A stretch of DNA of 12,256 nt from a virus, in IMG/VR virus record IMGVR_UViG_3300024262_005036; one strand, written 5' to 3'. The notes under the pieces were generated by a model. That model searched no databases. It was not told the origin of the DNA and saw nothing but the letters and a program-made list of their open reading frames with translations. The translations under genes and the position numbers were made by a program. Below, one piece after another: positions 1-6,709 of this stretch. How positions within the stretch are numbered: the first letter of the stretch is position 1; each line of letters starts with the position of its first letter.

Positions 1-514
1 TTTCTTTTTTAGAACTTTCTTTTTTAAAAACATTAAAAGGTTCCTTTTCCATTTCCTTGAAGGATAATTTACCCCTCTCATACTTCTCAACTTGTTCTTC
101 CACATAATCAACAATCTCATCGACATCTCTATTTATATAGACACTTTTAGATTTCAACATTATGTAAAAATCATTAGATAATTTCGTAGGAAGTTCAAAA
201 GAGTAATATTTATCACTAACAAGAATACACTTTACTCGTTTATTATTGTAATGAAATAAAAATAGATTATCATCATTTATAAAACATGCAAAAGATATAG
301 AATCTTTATCTGACACAATCCCTCTTGATGATGAAATTATTGTTTCAATATCTTTAGTATTTTCTATTATTGAAAGCATTAATGAGTCACCAATTTTATG
401 TTCTGGTATTGATTTACCAAATAAATATATTTTATCGTAGTGATAGTTCCAATAGTAAAATGCACCAATAAGTATTAGTGCTGTTAGAGATATCCATTGC
501 CAATTTTTTATCAT
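1..514 (-). CDS. hypothetical protein, partial. The N-terminus is at 514 and the C-terminus lies beyond the window start. The N-terminus has a hydrophobic signal-anchor.
   Basis: ATG sits at 514..512 on the minus strand. Hand translation of the minus strand from 514 down to 1 gives MIKNWQWISLTALILIGAFYYWNYHYDK...KEMEKEPFNVFKKESSKKE with no stop codon. The ORF is missing from the supplied table only because it is open-ended. Confidence 0.5.
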   Translation of the reverse strand, partial: MIKNWQWISLTALILIGAFYYWNYHYDKIYLFGKSIPEHKIGDSLMLSIIENTKDIETIISSSRGIVSDKDSISFACFINDDNLFLFHYNNKRVKCILVSDKYYSFELPTKLSNDFYIMLKSKSVYINRDVDEIVDYVEEQVEKYERGKLSFKEMEKEPFNVFKKESSKKE

Positions 515-768: not shown

Positions 769-1034
769 TTTGTATTTTTATTTTTTGATCTAACTACTAA
801 TTCATTCTTTATTTTTCCAATATTCATATCATAATTTACAAGATGCTCTTTATTATAAAAAATTATACTTTCATTATCATTTTCGATCAACTTCATTAAA
901 TCTTCTTTCAAGACTAAATAGTTGGTTAATAAGTCTAACAGTTCATCCGTTGTTTGTTCTCGCAATTCTTTATATGTCCAAATTCGCATATGATATATAT
1001 AAAAATGATTACGATAATTTCTCTTCTTTACCAC
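765..1034 (-). CDS. hypothetical protein (89 aa)
   Basis: This ORF is in the table. It lies co-directionally in the operon-like minus-strand block and overlaps the next gene by 26 nt. Confidence 0.45.
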   Translation of the reverse strand: MVKKRNYRNHFYIYHMRIWTYKELREQTTDELLDLLTNYLVLKEDLMKLIENDNESIIFYNKEHLVNYDMNIGKIKNELVVRSKNKNTK

Positions 1035-1965: not shown

Positions 1966-2264
1966 AAAGAAAATGATGGTAATTTAGGTTTTTCAATTAG
2001 TTCAACCAATATATCACCATGACAAGATTTAGGTTTACAAAAACAACCTAATCTTTTACCTTTAAGTTCGTGTAAATCATTTAATAAATCAGGACTATTT
2101 AAAATGTACTCTCTATATTTATCAATTGCCTCCTTCCTACTACTTACAATAAATTCTGCTTGTGTATTTTTATCTTTTATGTGTGTATAAGGATTACCCC
2201 ATTTACTTGGTCTTGAAATTAATACATCATATTCATCCGTTTTAATATTTACAACTGTTGTCAT
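1962..2264 (-). CDS. DUF4326-like protein. The start is taken at the internal Met MTTVVNIKTDEYDVLISRPSKWGNPY...CHGDILVE.
   Basis: The motifs SRPSKWGNPY, LGCFCKPKSCHGDIL are as I recall for the DUF4326 family of small phage and bacterial proteins. The 2264 start leaves a 22-nt gap to the upstream gene. The table start at 2339 would instead overlap that gene by 53 nt. Confidence 0.55.
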   Translation of the reverse strand: MTTVVNIKTDEYDVLISRPSKWGNPYTHIKDKNTQAEFIVSSRKEAIDKYREYILNSPDLLNDLHELKGKRLGCFCKPKSCHGDILVELIEKPKLPSFSF

Positions 2265-3122: not shown

Positions 3123-3926
3123 TTATTTTACGTCAAATATCTTGGATTCAGGATCTATCTTCCTGATAAGTTGTTTGATTCGTTTCTTGTTAATAATAAA
3201 TATGGTTTCTTCATTAGTAACATTTACATTTGGGTGGGATGTCTTAGATTCGACAATTAACTGTTCGTCTTTTTCAGTAATAACATTTAATATTGAAACA
3301 TCTTGTCTAACATCAATCTCCGCACTAGAATAAATAATTTCAGCGTACATTCCATTAGGGGGATTTATATGTTCACCATTCATATAATAATTAATAAGAA
3401 AGGGTATTTTCACATTAACTATAGTTCTATTGTTGTCACCATAATCAATTGAATCTGAGACATATAATAAATTATTATTACCAACCGAAAAGTCGGGCTC
3501 AAAAAGTTTATATTCAACTTTTTGAATATTTTTTAATTCGCAATTTTCAGATATGAGGTTTATATTTTCCTTTTCAACTTTTTTAAAACGTTCTTCCATA
3601 CTTTCATATTTTTTTCTCCAATTTGGAAGAATCTTATTAGATTCGAGTCGTTTTATTAATTGTATATTTTCTTCCACACAATTTGATAACTCTTGTTCTT
3701 TCTTCTTCTTATATTCTTTCATACCTTCGAGTGTATCTACTGTAAACTCAACTGTTCTATTGAGATAATATGCACAAGAATCTAAATCATATTGTGTAGA
3801 ATCTATAACAATAATTTCATTTTGATTAATATTTATTACATTTGTAAAATTGAATATTTCTGATAATAGAAATAATATACCAACAACTAAAATGCTGATA
3901 ATAGGTAATATAATTTGTTTTTTCAT
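3123..3926 (-). CDS. membrane-anchored hypothetical protein with a coiled-coil region (267 aa)
   Basis: The N-terminal helix is MKKQIILPIISILVVGILFLLSEIF. A K/E-rich segment from about aa 70 to 140 looks like a heptad coiled coil. This is the first gene of the minus-strand block, lying downstream of the divergent promoter gap 3927-3996. Confidence 0.6.
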   Translation of the reverse strand: MKKQIILPIISILVVGILFLLSEIFNFTNVININQNEIIVIDSTQYDLDSCAYYLNRTVEFTVDTLEGMKEYKKKKEQELSNCVEENIQLIKRLESNKILPNWRKKYESMEERFKKVEKENINLISENCELKNIQKVEYKLFEPDFSVGNNNLLYVSDSIDYGDNNRTIVNVKIPFLINYYMNGEHINPPNGMYAEIIYSSAEIDVRQDVSILNVITEKDEQLIVESKTSHPNVNVTNEETIFIINKKRIKQLIRKIDPESKIFDVK

Positions 3927-3996
3927 ATTTTTTAAGGATTATTTTAACTAATTATATATTGTGTTTTTTATTAAAAGTTTTTAGTATATATACACG

Positions 3997-4185
3997 ATGA
4001 ATAACAAAGAAGATTTACCAAGATATCGTTGTTATTGGTGTGACAATGTTATGAATGAAAATAGAATTTTAATAAAGGATAAAGAAGAACGAAACAAATA
4101 TAAAAATGTAGTTCTACCTTATCGTTATTGCAAAGAATGTTATGACTATATCCAATGGGAAAATAAAACATATGGATTTGATTGA
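3997..4185 (+). CDS. small zinc-ribbon-like protein (62 aa, CxxC...CxxC)
   Basis: There are two Cys pairs, CYWC and CKEC, separated by 27 aa. A TATATA box lies just upstream of the ATG. Confidence 0.45.
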   Translation: MNNKEDLPRYRCYWCDNVMNENRILIKDKEERNKYKNVVLPYRYCKECYDYIQWENKTYGFD

Positions 4186-4261
4186 GACTACACATTACTA
4201 ATATATAAAAATATTAAGTAAAACTTTTTTTATTTAAAATAATATAGTACTTTTGTATCGG

Positions 4262-4306
4262 ATTCGAAAATGAAATGCGTTCTACCAACTGAACTACTCC
4301 CGCAAT
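4262..4306 (-). pseudogene. tRNA-like fragment: acceptor 5' strand, complete D-arm and T-loop, but no anticodon arm or 3' acceptor strand. It is either a tRNA remnant or a tRNA-mimic element.
   Basis: The minus strand reads GCGGGAG-TA-GTTC-AGTTGGTA-GAAC-G-CATTTCAT-TTCGAATCC-GATAC. The first 26 nt are a textbook tRNA positions 1-26. TTCGAATCC is the canonical T-loop with the start of the 3' T-stem. I could not fold an anticodon stem or a 5' T-stem. No CTCCCGC partner strand lies downstream. The element sits 34 nt upstream of the RNA-ligase N-ORF. Confidence 0.45.
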
Positions 4307-4339
4307 TAATTTAGTTAGAACAAAAAAAATTTTAGAATC

Positions 4340-4693
4340 ATGAGAAAATTAGCTTCAATTAGAAAAATTGGTAATCTGCAACCAATCAAAGATGCAGATA
4401 GAATTGAACTTGCAATCGTTGATGGTTGGAAAGTTGTAGTAAACAAAGGTGTTCACACTATTGGTGAATTAATTGTTTACTTTGAAATTGATTCATTGCT
4501 TCCTATTCAGGAAGAATTTGAATTCCTTAGAAAATCATCTTACAAAATGATGTCTGATGGAACCGAAGGTTTCAGATTAAAAACTATTAGACTTCGTGGC
4601 GTTTATAGTCAAGGACTTATACTACCATTAAACATATTAAATTCTTACGGAAAACTTATCGAAGAGGATGGTGAGACATTTTTTGAATTTTAA
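4340..4693 (+). CDS. RNA ligase, N-terminal OB-fold (tRNA_bind/Myf-like) domain fragment of a split DraRnl/NgrRnl-type ligase
   Basis: IRKIGNLQPIKDADRIELAIVDGWKVVV ... LKTIRLRGVYSQGLILPL matches the OB-fold tRNA-binding domain pattern found in the MetRS C-terminus, Trbp111, CsaA and EMAP-II (hPDADkL.v..VD.G...qiV ... K...RGv.SqGMLl). The DraRnl-clade N-module is, as I recall, a fold of this kind. The ORF stops at a TAA, 33 nt before the HEG. Confidence 0.65.
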   Translation: MRKLASIRKIGNLQPIKDADRIELAIVDGWKVVVNKGVHTIGELIVYFEIDSLLPIQEEFEFLRKSSYKMMSDGTEGFRLKTIRLRGVYSQGLILPLNILNSYGKLIEEDGETFFEF

Positions 4694-4725: not shown

Positions 4726-5649
4726 GTGATGTTAGATATATACAAAATTTATAAAATTGAAAATATGGTCAACAATAAATTGTATGTTGGTAAAACAAAA
4801 TTATCATTAGATAAAAGATTTAAAAGACACATATACAATGCTGAAAATAAAATAAACAGATATTTGTATGATGCAATGAACCATTATGGATATGATAATT
4901 TTAAAATTGAATTATTAGAAACTTGCACAGAGGACGAGTCCAATAATAAAGAAAAATTTTTTATTAAACACTTTAATTCTAATGATAAAATGTTTGGTTA
5001 TAATATGACAAAAGGAGGTGACGGTGGAAATACTGGAAATTATCATTATGGTAAATCATTTTATGATTGGTGGCTTAAGAAATATGGTAAAAAGATTGCT
5101 GATAAAATGAAAAATGATACATATAATCTAATTTCAAAAAAATTAAAGATAATATATTCAGGTGTTTCTTTTGATGAAAGATTTGGTGATAATTCCGAAA
5201 GTGTTAAGAATAAAATTAGAAACACATTAAAAATTAAAGGACATAAACCACCAACACAATATTGGAAAGATAAAAAACATCCAATGTTAGGTAAAACACA
5301 TTCGGAAATATCTAAAAATAAAATGTCAAATTTTAGATCAGGAAAAACATATGAAGAGATATATGGTGAGGAAAAAGCAAAACAAATGAGAAAGAAAAAA
5401 TCTTTATTTTTATCAGAAAATAATCCTAATAAAAGAGAAGATTTTTCTACTAACGATAAGATATTTATATTGGAAAATATACAAAATATGACTATTAAAA
5501 TTATATCAACACACATAAATAGAAGTCCATATGAAATTAGAAAATTTTTTAGAATATTAGGAATAAAAAACATTCAAAAATTTAAAGTAGATAAAAATAT
5601 TGAAAATAAATTAATGGACTTAATTGAAAAAATAAGAAAGGAAAAATAA
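4726..5649 (+). CDS. GIY-YIG homing endonuclease with NUMOD3 DNA-binding repeats (I-TevI/Seg-like), inserted inside the RNA ligase gene
   Basis: The N-terminus carries the full GIY-YIG catalytic signature: DIYKIYKIEN...NKLYVGKT...RFKRH...KIELLE...E.FFIKHF...GYNMTKGG. Downstream, GKTHSEISKNKMS and KKHPMLGKTHSE fit NUMOD3 (GKxHSEETKxKIS). The C-terminus is basic. Confidence 0.85.
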   Translation: MMLDIYKIYKIENMVNNKLYVGKTKLSLDKRFKRHIYNAENKINRYLYDAMNHYGYDNFKIELLETCTEDESNNKEKFFIKHFNSNDKMFGYNMTKGGDGGNTGNYHYGKSFYDWWLKKYGKKIADKMKNDTYNLISKKLKIIYSGVSFDERFGDNSESVKNKIRNTLKIKGHKPPTQYWKDKKHPMLGKTHSEISKNKMSNFRSGKTYEEIYGEEKAKQMRKKKSLFLSENNPNKREDFSTNDKIFILENIQNMTIKIISTHINRSPYEIRKFFRILGIKNIQKFKVDKNIENKLMDLIEKIRKEK

Positions 5650-5651
5650 TT

Positions 5652-6350
5652 ATGAAATTAAAAATAAAAGAAGGTTTAGATTTAACGCAGATATTAAATA
5701 TTATAAAATATGAACCACCTATTCCTCCAGAATTGTCTGGTAAGGTAATTGGACAATTCCCAAGTTTCATTCGTAAAACAGATGAAGAAAGAATTCAAAA
5801 CTTTTCTGACGAATATCAAGAAATGAGAAAATTTAGATATTTCGCTTCTGAAAAACTTGATGGAACTTCATGTACTATGTACTTCAACCAAAAATTTGGC
5901 ATCTGTTCAAGAAATCTTGAATTGGCTGAAGGTGACACAACACAATGGAAACTTGCAAGAGAATTTGGTTTAATTTCTAAATTAGAAAATTTAGGACGAA
6001 ACATAGCTCTTCAAGGTGAAATAATTGGAGAAGGTATTCAGAAAAACAAATACAAATTAAAAGGACAAGAATTCAGACTTTTCAACATCTTTGATATTGA
6101 TAACTACGAATATTTACCAAAAAGCGAAATGTTAGAAATCGCAGAACAATTTTGTTTGAAAATTGTACCTACTGTTTTTGAGAATATAGAACTTCCATTA
6201 ACTATTGATGAACTTTTAGAAATTGCAGAAGGAAAGTCAGTTCTTAATACACAGACTGAAAGAGAAGGTTTAGTGTGGGTATCTGTTGACTCACCTGAAA
6301 GAATTTCCTTTAAGACAATCTCTAACAGATTTTTGTTGAAATATGAATAA
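5652..6350 (+). CDS. RNA ligase, nucleotidyltransferase (adenylyltransferase) domain fragment of the same split ligase
   Basis: Motif I YFASEKLDGTS is a KxDG lysine-adenylylation motif, with K68 encoded at 5853-5855. The downstream GEIIGEG, EGLVWV and ISFKTISNRFLLK resemble ligase motifs III, IV and V. Its own ATG lies 2 nt after the HEG stop, and an AAGGAAAAA purine tract sits inside the HEG 3' end. Confidence 0.7.
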   Translation: MKLKIKEGLDLTQILNIIKYEPPIPPELSGKVIGQFPSFIRKTDEERIQNFSDEYQEMRKFRYFASEKLDGTSCTMYFNQKFGICSRNLELAEGDTTQWKLAREFGLISKLENLGRNIALQGEIIGEGIQKNKYKLKGQEFRLFNIFDIDNYEYLPKSEMLEIAEQFCLKIVPTVFENIELPLTIDELLEIAEGKSVLNTQTEREGLVWVSVDSPERISFKTISNRFLLKYE

Positions 6351-6410: not shown

Positions 6411-6656
6411 ATGAAACATTTAAAACATATAAATGAAGAATATAAAAGTAAAGAACTCAAAAAAGGTATAAAACATGAAAAAGAGCATGATAAAACCTAT
6501 GAGAACATTAAAAAGTATTATGAAAAGAATAAAGATTTCCCAGGAAAAATGTTAATTTTTAAATGGATTGCAGAGGATCATTTGGATGATTTCAAAGATT
6601 ATTATACAAGACATAAGAAAATGGAAAAAGGTGCCAAATCAGGCGGGAAAGATTAA
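6411..6656 (+). CDS. hypothetical small basic protein (81 aa). Its C-terminal 19 aa are encoded by direct-repeat copy A.
   Basis: This ORF is in the table and is K/E/H-rich. Its 3' 58 bp (6596-6653) recur exactly at 7483-7540. Confidence 0.5.
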   Translation: MKHLKHINEEYKSKELKKGIKHEKEHDKTYENIKKYYEKNKDFPGKMLIFKWIAEDHLDDFKDYYTRHKKMEKGAKSGGKD

Positions 6657-6709
6657 TAAATAGTACTCTAATAAAGAAAAATTAATATTAACAAAAAAAT
6701 ATATATAAA

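Follow-up and report, generated by a model that had tools for sequence, protein, structure and literature searches.

The element examined here lies in a 12,256-nucleotide (nt) stretch of viral DNA (IMG/VR record IMGVR_UViG_3300024262_005036, referred to below as the window), where it occupies positions 4303 to 4260 of the minus strand, upstream of a gene for an RNA ligase of the Rnl5 family. Exact identity to real genes marks it as derived from a gene for glycine transfer RNA (tRNA-Gly), and it lacks the architecture of a tRNA. The element is probably an old fossil of such a gene, lying antisense in the leader of the ligase gene and partly co-opted by a structured leader, and it is almost certainly neither a working tRNA nor a tRNA mimic. 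Fragments of tRNA genes are known from phage genomes, and this is a new one, found in an unusual setting. The window is part of a 70-kilobase (kb) metagenomic phage contig, 31 kb of which was read. Two independent metagenome contigs, 99.88% identical over 4.9 kb, carry the element region without a difference between them.

Remains of a tRNA-Gly gene

On the minus strand, the element begins with 26 nt (4303..4278) that correspond to tRNA-Gly positions 1-26, GCGGGAG TA GTTC AGTTGGTA GAAC G: the 5' strand of the acceptor stem (GCGGGAG), U8 and A9, the D arm (GTTC-AGTTGGTA-GAAC) and G26. All four pairs of the D arm can form, and the conserved residues U8, A14, G18, G19 and A21 are all present. The next 9 nt (CATTTCATT, 4277..4269) are a filler that replaces about 27 nt, comprising the anticodon arm, the variable loop and the 5' strand of the T stem; its first two bases, CA, are those of positions 27-28 in the Wolbachia/Rickettsiales type of tRNA-Gly(GCC). 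The T-loop remnant TTCGAATCC (tRNA positions 54-62) closes the element at 4268..4260, with no T stem on either side and GATAC next on the minus strand. The content of guanine plus cytosine (GC) is 54% in 4278..4303, compared with 26% in the window.

A first-pass annotation had reported a tRNA-like stretch on the minus strand, and the sequence it described can be read there with small corrections. It set the element at 4262-4306, 2-3 nt too high for a span of 4260-4303. The short filler before the T-loop motif, counted as 8 nt, has 9, and the element, rightly placed upstream of the ligase ATG, is 36 nt from it instead of 34. This ATG, at 4340, is on the plus strand, opposite to the tRNA-sense strand of the element. 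Relative to the ligase transcription unit, the element is in antisense orientation, which the annotation overlooked.

The missing parts are those that the annotation had named. A 3' acceptor strand (CTCCCGC or the like) is absent from the minus strand across 20 kb, the flanks of the T loop, TCATT and CCGAT, pair at none of five positions, and only 9 nt separate G26 from the T loop, leaving no anticodon stem. A generic covariance model of tRNA, for which 28 phage tRNAs not chosen via the element were used, gives on forced alignment only a 4-base-pair (bp) A/U pseudo-stem whose loop, CAUUUUC, has neither U33 nor a purine at 37, together with four non-pairs in the acceptor stem. By this model the site ranks first in the window, yet with only 11.1 bits (E = 0.087), as expected of a fragment.

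ARAGORN calls no tRNA gene and no transfer-messenger RNA (tmRNA) gene in the window, and Rfam gives no match to tRNA, tmRNA or Y RNA at the gathering threshold in the window, nor anything relevant at E<=10 around the site. The full tRNA that the annotation had allowed for at this place is therefore not found by either tool, and the tRNA-like domain of a tmRNA is likewise negative in both. At E<=10, Rfam also detects no T-box element or other known tRNA-sensing riboswitch on the plus or the minus strand. Across the 31 kb of source contig that were read, neither a tRNA nor an Rfam family occurs. A hidden full, split or intron-containing tRNA was considered and rejected, with ARAGORN and Rfam negative in the window and in the 31 kb of contig, and with no 3' half or acceptor strand in 20 kb.

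The parentage of the fragment is revealed by its 5' part. The 25-mer GCGGGAGTAGTTCAGTTGGTAGAAC has 82 exact occurrences in genome and metagenome collections, 80 of which are the 5' end of ARAGORN-called tRNA-Gly genes with the anticodon GCC, UCC or CCC; the organisms that carry them include Wolbachia/Rickettsiales, Elusimicrobia/Endomicrobia and Saccharibacteria. Against the GCC-type tRNA-Gly of Wolbachia/Rickettsiales, the identity reaches 28 nt. Many of the recovered tRNA-Gly genes share the T loop of the element, GGTTCGAATCC, and the 9-mer TTCGAATCC of the T-loop remnant is present in many as well. By our own estimates, the chance of the 25-mer in a window of 26% GC is about 5e-13 and that of the T-loop 9-mer within 40 nt about 6e-5; the probability of a chance resemblance is put below 1e-6. 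The annotation's proposal of a tRNA gene remnant is thus borne out and can be narrowed to tRNA-Gly. Megablast of the window against GenBank phages gives no match, and distant blastn of the element matches only the 5' parts of ordinary phage tRNAs.

Conservation and decay in a diverged phage

An orthologous copy is found in a diverged phage, L143, which was located through the left-hand neighbour, a 267-amino-acid (aa) protein with 67% protein identity. The L143 locus is syntenic, with a zinc-ribbon open reading frame (ORF), an extra 67-aa ORF, a 150-nt spacer, an unsplit 322-aa Rnl5 ligase and a vault-like protein, and its ligase gene is without the GIY-YIG endonuclease that splits the gene in the window. 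Its spacer holds the same truncated element, in the same place and orientation and at the same distance upstream of the ligase, and the association of element and ligase to which the annotation had drawn attention is therefore real. In tRNA sense, the L143 copy reads GGCGGAG TA GCTC AGTCGGCA GAAC AAGTCCATT TTCGAATCC GATAC. At the DNA level, the two phages are 86% identical in the spacer, 72-74% in the genes next to it and 81-86% in the genes that are conserved best; their ligases share only 33% protein identity.

The occurrence of the same sequence in two independent assemblies, together with the orthologous copy in L143, rules out an assembly artefact. Alignment of the two copies establishes that the truncated layout itself is conserved between orthologs. 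Judged from this pair, the layout is older than the split of the two phages and older than the endonuclease insertion, since L143 has the truncated element but an unsplit ligase.

From the promoter side onward, differences from L143 number 1 of 56 in the promoter block up to ...GGATTCGAAAATG, 0 of 9 in the T-loop remnant, 3 of 9 in the filler (8 nt plus a substitution in L143), 6 of 26 in tRNA positions 1-26 and 9 of 38 in the 3' part of the leader. The divergence of positions 1-26 (23%) compares with 26% in the neighbouring coding DNA. In the D stem of L143, C11 stands opposite A24, which breaks the 11-24 pair, and the generic tRNA model gives this copy 4.6 bits (E = 8.9), at the level of noise. 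The universal residues U8, A14, G18, G19 and A21 and the whole T loop are retained in both phages. In this one ortholog, the aligned sequences thus reveal tRNA features in decay and a tRNA-likeness that is not maintained by selection. The two copies differ by T versus C at positions 11, 17 and 20, which suggests that the window copy has drifted toward A+T and that its repaired 11-24 pair and its perfect match to AT-rich tRNA-Gly genes may be partly fortuitous.

DNA-pattern searches of viral contigs for further orthologs, with GTATCGGATTCGAAAATG and with a gapped leader pattern, return no match. The zinc-ribbon ORF (62 aa) has no homolog in the viral-contig scan and finds only itself in a protein search, though L143 has a clear homolog. 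None of the 33 viral loci and 10 metagenome loci that were reached through the ligase N-terminal domain contains the element, which therefore does not travel with this type of ligase.

Predicted promoter and leader of the ligase gene

The motif TAnnTTTG is the -7 consensus of Flavobacterium and Bacteroides (PMC7641319). In the 31 kb, 10 sites combine it with an upstream T-run of at least 5 nt, and 8 of the 10 are intergenic and face plus-strand genes in a sequence of which only 14% is non-coding. The motif with its T-run is strongly enriched ahead of plus-strand genes. The promoter type is uniform in this phage, with a TTTTTTTATTT-like T-run, about 15 nt and then TAnnTTTG; its sites in the window are at 4248, 7406, 10170 and 12223. 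The first of these belongs to the predicted promoter of the ligase operon (4225..4255, plus strand), whose T-run spans 4225-4231 and whose -7 box, TACTTTTG, spans 4248-4255, in a block with 55 of 56 positions identical in L143.

The box of this promoter is 4 nt from the element. In three sister promoters, an ATG follows exactly 4 nt past the box, which points to leaderless transcripts that start at the fifth nucleotide; on this pattern, transcription of the ligase operon is predicted to start at G4260, the base with which the element ends. The predicted 5' untranslated region (UTR) of the ligase is 80 nt long (4260..4339, plus strand), and the element, read as its reverse complement, makes up the first 44 nt. 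The genes are without Shine-Dalgarno sequences, and this feature together with the promoters points to a Bacteroidota host. A eukaryotic reading, in which the surviving regions would be the A-box and B-box of RNA polymerase III and which the nearby vault-like protein might recall, was rejected: the promoters, the missing Shine-Dalgarno sequences and the gene content are those of a Bacteroidota phage.

On the minus strand upstream of the element, no TAnnTTTG promoter with a T-run is present, and the nearest bare TAnnTTTG is about 500 nt away, inside a coding region. A pair of sigma-70-like hexamers lies upstream of the element on this strand, at 4358-4329. A sigma-70 promoter was rejected as a candidate, with a scan count below the shuffle expectation (4 found, 7 expected) that makes the scan uninformative, and with a promoter type that is not that of this phage.

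The RNAalifold consensus of the window and L143 predicts a leader hairpin from 4260 to 4343 on the plus strand, with three helices. P1 joins GGAUUC (4260-4265) to GAAUC-U (4335-4341) and touches the AUG, P2 joins 4268-4271 to 4329-4332, and P3 joins GUUCU (4279-4283) to AGAAC (4317-4321); the apical region consists of sequence complementary to the acceptor strand and D region. The fold has z = -2.2 in the window and -2.96 in L143 on the plus strand, compared with -0.7 and -1.0 on the minus strand, and the plus strand folds better because of G-U pairs that work only on that strand. Differences between the two leaders fall in 0 of 34 paired columns and 18 of 56 unpaired columns (Fisher p = 7e-5, in a test that is biased, since the same pair of sequences had served to predict the structure). 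Formation of the hairpin is plausible rather than proven, because no compensatory change is seen, and the hairpin may well matter to expression of the ligase.

An upstream ORF of 14 codons (MKCVLPTELLPQLI*, 4270..4314, plus strand) begins in the leader, with an ATG that is conserved in L143 and lies 11 nt past the predicted start. From the same ATG, L143 has an upstream ORF of 21 codons (about 7198-7133, minus strand of the locus) in another frame, with an unrelated peptide, which ends 5 nt before the ligase ATG. The upstream ORF could be due to chance, or it could be a coupling device that opens the hairpin.

In the proposed course of events, a tRNA-Gly gene would have decayed until positions 1-28 and 54-62 remained, with the loss of the anticodon arm, both strands of the T stem and the 3' acceptor strand. 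The Bacteroidota-type promoter (T-run and TACTTTTG, 4225-4255) would start the ligase messenger RNA (mRNA) at G4260, and this mRNA would open with the reverse complement of the T-loop remnant, followed by the complement of the D arm and the acceptor strand. The T-loop complement at the 5' end of the leader would pair with GAAUC-AUG at the ligase start codon and the D-stem complement would pair further in, with the D/acceptor part as a drifting apical filler. Selection would keep the promoter, the 5' end and the hairpin stems as the tRNA-likeness decays. The hairpin would probably serve mRNA stability and protection of the 5' end, or restrain translation of the ligase.

A fossil origin fits the frequent location of Rnl5 genes near phage tRNA clusters and the presence of truncated tRNA pieces within such clusters. 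One of these pieces, at about 1982-2045 (minus strand) of L133, is a tRNA 5' fragment that ends in the anticodon loop and lies inside a phage cluster of 15 tRNAs. Fragments of tRNA-Gly occur elsewhere as well: a 5' piece at 6543 (minus strand) of L046, an Elusimicrobia metagenome-assembled genome, lies 330 nt from a full tRNA-Gly, and a truncated 5' fragment is found at 2550 (plus strand) of L070, a metagenome contig. Like the tRNA pseudogenes and fragments of phages, the element consists of colinear tRNA pieces without a full cloverleaf, escapes the tRNA finders and lies near an RNA-repair or tRNA-related gene. It differs from them in being isolated, with no tRNA in 31 kb, in being antisense to the local transcription unit, and in being kept in truncated form in two diverged phages, inside a conserved leader. 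With structured 5' leaders such as ompA-type stabilizers and translational operators, the predicted transcript would share a beginning in a helix with the start-codon region and invariant stems. Here, in contrast to those leaders, the structure is a prediction without covariation and one of its arms is of tRNA-gene origin, a case that we have not encountered elsewhere.

Several points weigh against a decayed and partly co-opted fossil. The transcription start is predicted from a motif, the substitution test of the hairpin has the bias given above, and the stems overlap promoter-proximal and translation-initiation sequence, which would be conserved anyway. All 17 of the 17 predicted pairs are invariant, with no covariation, in just two diverged copies. 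The neighbouring coding DNA is itself constrained, so a divergence of 23% could still conceal some constraint on the tRNA part, and the window copy still matches real tRNA-Gly genes at 25 of 25 positions. Survival of the D arm and the T loop, both of which form the elbow of a tRNA, is slightly odd for random decay, and the pattern requires either two separate deletions or an ancestor that had no anticodon arm.

For annotation, the element is a warning: 26 nt of phage DNA that look very much like a tRNA can be a dead fragment, and the strand with this likeness is probably not the expressed one. It also serves as an example of a tRNA-gene fragment that survives as part of the promoter-proximal leader hairpin predicted for an RNA-repair ligase gene. 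For biology at large, the finding matters little as it stands and is a curiosity, not a new kind of RNA.

Alternative accounts and the ligase neighbourhood

A possible ancestor without an anticodon arm is offered by tRNA-like genes of other phages in which this arm is missing. A scan of viral contigs for a D arm closely followed by a T loop yields 84 distinct, complete sequences of 54-62 nt in IMG/VR phage contigs. These have a 7-bp acceptor stem, a canonical D arm, a linker of 8-9 nt, a 5-bp T stem and a T loop, with 11-17 nt between the D stem and the T loop (T54). Covariation in the stems is strong: pairing averages 6.2 of 7 in the acceptor stem, compared with 3.1 for shuffled partners, and 4.9 of 5 in the T stem, compared with 3.3. 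All four examples run against Rfam score 43-51 bits with its tRNA model (RF00005, gathering score 29), and ARAGORN called none of the four tested. Of the 84, 18 are within 300 nt of real tRNAs, some directly after one. Examples are found in L137 (about 12868-12930, minus strand), L139 (7165-7225) and L142 (13880-13945), and among L146-L250, such as L166 (406-465), L161 (2781-2840) and L184 (596-655). A literature search gave nothing specific on arm-less tRNA-like RNAs or on tRNA fragments in phage leaders, and this set of genes deserves a study of its own.

The arm-less genes share with the element the canonical D arm, short linker, T loop and lack of an anticodon arm that the first-pass annotation had described. 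In the element, by contrast, neither the acceptor stem nor the T stem can pair, the spacing is shorter, at 10 nt, and Rfam finds no match; it is not an arm-less gene but could descend from one. The fossil would then be the same, and its ancestor an arm-less gene that lost the T stem and the 3' strand as the promoter took over the DNA, which is compatible with the preferred reading but which we consider unlikely. The existence of 84 complete genes in which the T loop follows the D stem after 11-17 nt makes such an ancestor available, the spacing of 10 nt here and 9 nt in L143 comes close to theirs, and one truncation with a small deletion would suffice in place of two large deletions. Yet the spacing is below that of any complete member, the filler bears no trace of the usual (T)GTC and T-stem sequence, the 28 nt of the 5' part match canonical tRNA-Gly genes exactly, and relatives of this phage have shown no arm-less element.

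Two ordinary phage tRNAs drew attention through their opposite strands: the Rfam model of the Plastid-ycf2 5'UTR RNA (RF04354) matches the antisense of tRNAs at 918-991 (plus strand) of L219 and at 365-435 (minus strand) of L157. The scores, 40 and 22 bits, are under the gathering score of that model, and they suggest that it partly resembles antisense tRNA.

A role for the antisense tRNA-Gly segment as a sensor of tRNA damage appears improbable. In such a role, the 28-nt complement in the leader would act as an anti-tRNA riboregulator. It would pair with unfolded tRNA-Gly, or with 5' fragments of tRNA-Gly that a nuclease of the host, an anticodon nuclease or another tRNA nuclease, had produced, and would thereby open the hairpin at the AUG, so that the repair ligase would be made only in the presence of damaged tRNA. 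The element is predicted to be transcribed antisense in the ligase leader, the predicted hairpin would sequester the AUG region, and the gene to be controlled is a ligase of the RNA-repair type, Rnl5. An RNA-repair operon regulated by damaged tRNA is known in bacteria, through the protein sensor RtcR (PMC7790460). The likeness to that operon is conceptual only, in that expression of an RNA-repair ligase is tied to tRNA damage; the sensor there is a CARF-domain protein and the ligase RtcB, compared with an antisense pairing here that is unsupported. If the role were true, it would amount to a new, RNA-only antisense coupling of RNA repair to tRNA damage, a counterpart of the RtcR response. The conservation pattern runs the other way, however, since the anti-tRNA segment is the least conserved of the leader (6 of 26 and 3 of 9 positions differ) and the stems are invariant, and the two phages would need different tRNA targets. 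No Bacteroidota are named among the titled species-representative matches of the exact 25-mer, though the promoters suggest a Bacteroidota host. P1 and P2, the helices over the AUG, would not come apart directly when positions 1-28 are paired, and such a sensor is without precedent.

A functional small RNA on the minus strand is similarly doubtful. By means of its D arm and T loop, it would act as a tRNA mimic or decoy, resembling YrlA or luring nucleases or enzymes that modify tRNA. In YrlA, the acceptor-like stem is closed, a T arm and a helix that binds Ro60 are present, and a Ro60 (rsr) gene lies next to the RNA gene. The retention of U8, A14, G18, G19, A21 and the whole T loop in both phages, the sigma-70-like hexamers upstream on the minus strand (4358-4329) and the complete arm-less tRNA-like genes of other phages would agree with a mimic. 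But acceptor pairing and a T stem are missing, the minus strand folds no more stably than shuffled sequence (z = +0.9 and -0.7) with no helix beyond the D hairpin, and no Y RNA, tRNA or tmRNA of Rfam matches at E<=10. The sigma-70-like hexamers are fewer than shuffling predicts (4 compared with 7) and of a type that is not the phage's own, and in L143 the D-stem pair is broken and the copy scores as noise. No Ro60/TROVE family is found in the ten window proteins scanned or is on record for the called genes of the 20-kb locus. The annotation had compared the element to a YrlA-type mimic module, and this comparison fails on the Rfam result, the absent acceptor and T stems, the lack of a tRNA-sense fold and of a promoter of the phage's own type, and the decay of the ortholog. 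In common with YrlA and bacterial Y RNAs (Chen et al. 2014, PMC4201824), the element has tRNA-like D and T features and no anticodon; the closed stem, the T arm, the Ro60 helix and the rsr gene are all lacking.

A scar of recombination or integration is about as improbable as a mimic. The element would be a phage attachment site (attP) type of core shared with a host tRNA-Gly, or a fragment captured in double-strand-break repair near a homing endonuclease. Phages commonly carry attP segments identical to a tRNA, a GIY-YIG endonuclease gene is 420 nt away, and truncated tRNA-Gly 5' fragments stand beside full genes in bacterial contigs (L046, L070). However, attP cores that duplicate a tRNA carry its 3' portion and lie near an integrase gene. 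The likeness of the element to them, a phage segment identical to part of a tRNA gene, is offset by its composition of a 5' part and a detached T loop, by the lack of a recorded integrase family in the genes called over 31 kb of the 70-kb contig, and by vertical inheritance with the leader. The element also predates the endonuclease insertion, being present in L143 beside an unsplit ligase, and the titled 25-mer matches name no Bacteroidota. The integration or excision footprint offered in the annotation finds no support, on the same grounds: the wrong part of the tRNA, no recorded integrase family and no titled Bacteroidota match.

Chance resemblance to a tRNA, for which the low score by full-length tRNA models is the only point, has practically no probability and is already refuted by the 25-nt exact identity to real tRNA-Gly genes, alongside the colinear T-loop 9-mer and the GC-rich island within DNA of 26% GC.

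In the neighbourhood of the element, genes run leftward up to 3926 and rightward from 3997. The 62-aa zinc-ribbon ORF (3997-4185, plus strand) is followed by a 154-nt spacer that contains the element and leads to the ligase. The ligase gene is in two parts on the plus strand, an Rnl5 N-terminal OB fragment (4340..4693; PF21189, E = 3.7e-35), which aligns to residues 4-100 of the structure 5cot, and a nucleotidyltransferase fragment (5652..6350; PF09414), which continues the N fragment in the 5cot alignment. Between them, a GIY-YIG homing endonuclease gene (4726..5649, plus strand; PF01541, NUMOD3) splits the ligase gene, with no group I intron found there by Rfam. When the two fragments are joined, they align over the full length of the Naegleria gruberi RNA ligase (5cot; E = 1.5e-71), the structural exemplar of the Rnl5 nick-sealing family. 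Of the tRNA-binding OB-fold N domain ascribed to the ligase by the annotation, the OB domain (Rnl5, PF21189) is upheld, and nothing here indicates that it binds tRNA. In several of the loci reached through this N domain, genuine tRNA clusters lie upstream of the ligase, at a distance of 1-2 kb. The arrangement of N fragment, GIY-YIG gene and C fragment recurs in other phages (L119-L124), and many database homologs of the N domain are free-standing ORFs of about 120 aa.

Downstream, at 7686-10109, the phage contig encodes an 807-aa protein with the shoulder and repeat domains of the major vault protein (PF11978, E = 3.3e-28; PF17795). The gene has 86% DNA identity to its L143 copy, and a single-protein scan of IMG/VR viral contigs returns no relative of the protein and no further orthologs of the element. 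A 65-nt direct repeat, 97% identical, is present at 6596-6660 and 7483-7547. One copy is at the 3' end of a DUF5661-like gene, and the other ends a 42-aa ORF that starts 4 nt past the predicted promoter at 7406. Near 4000 (about 3900-4300 in the window), some 300 nt from the element, the minimum of the cumulative GC skew coincides with the switch in gene orientation, which could mark a replication origin or merely a pair of divergent transcription units.

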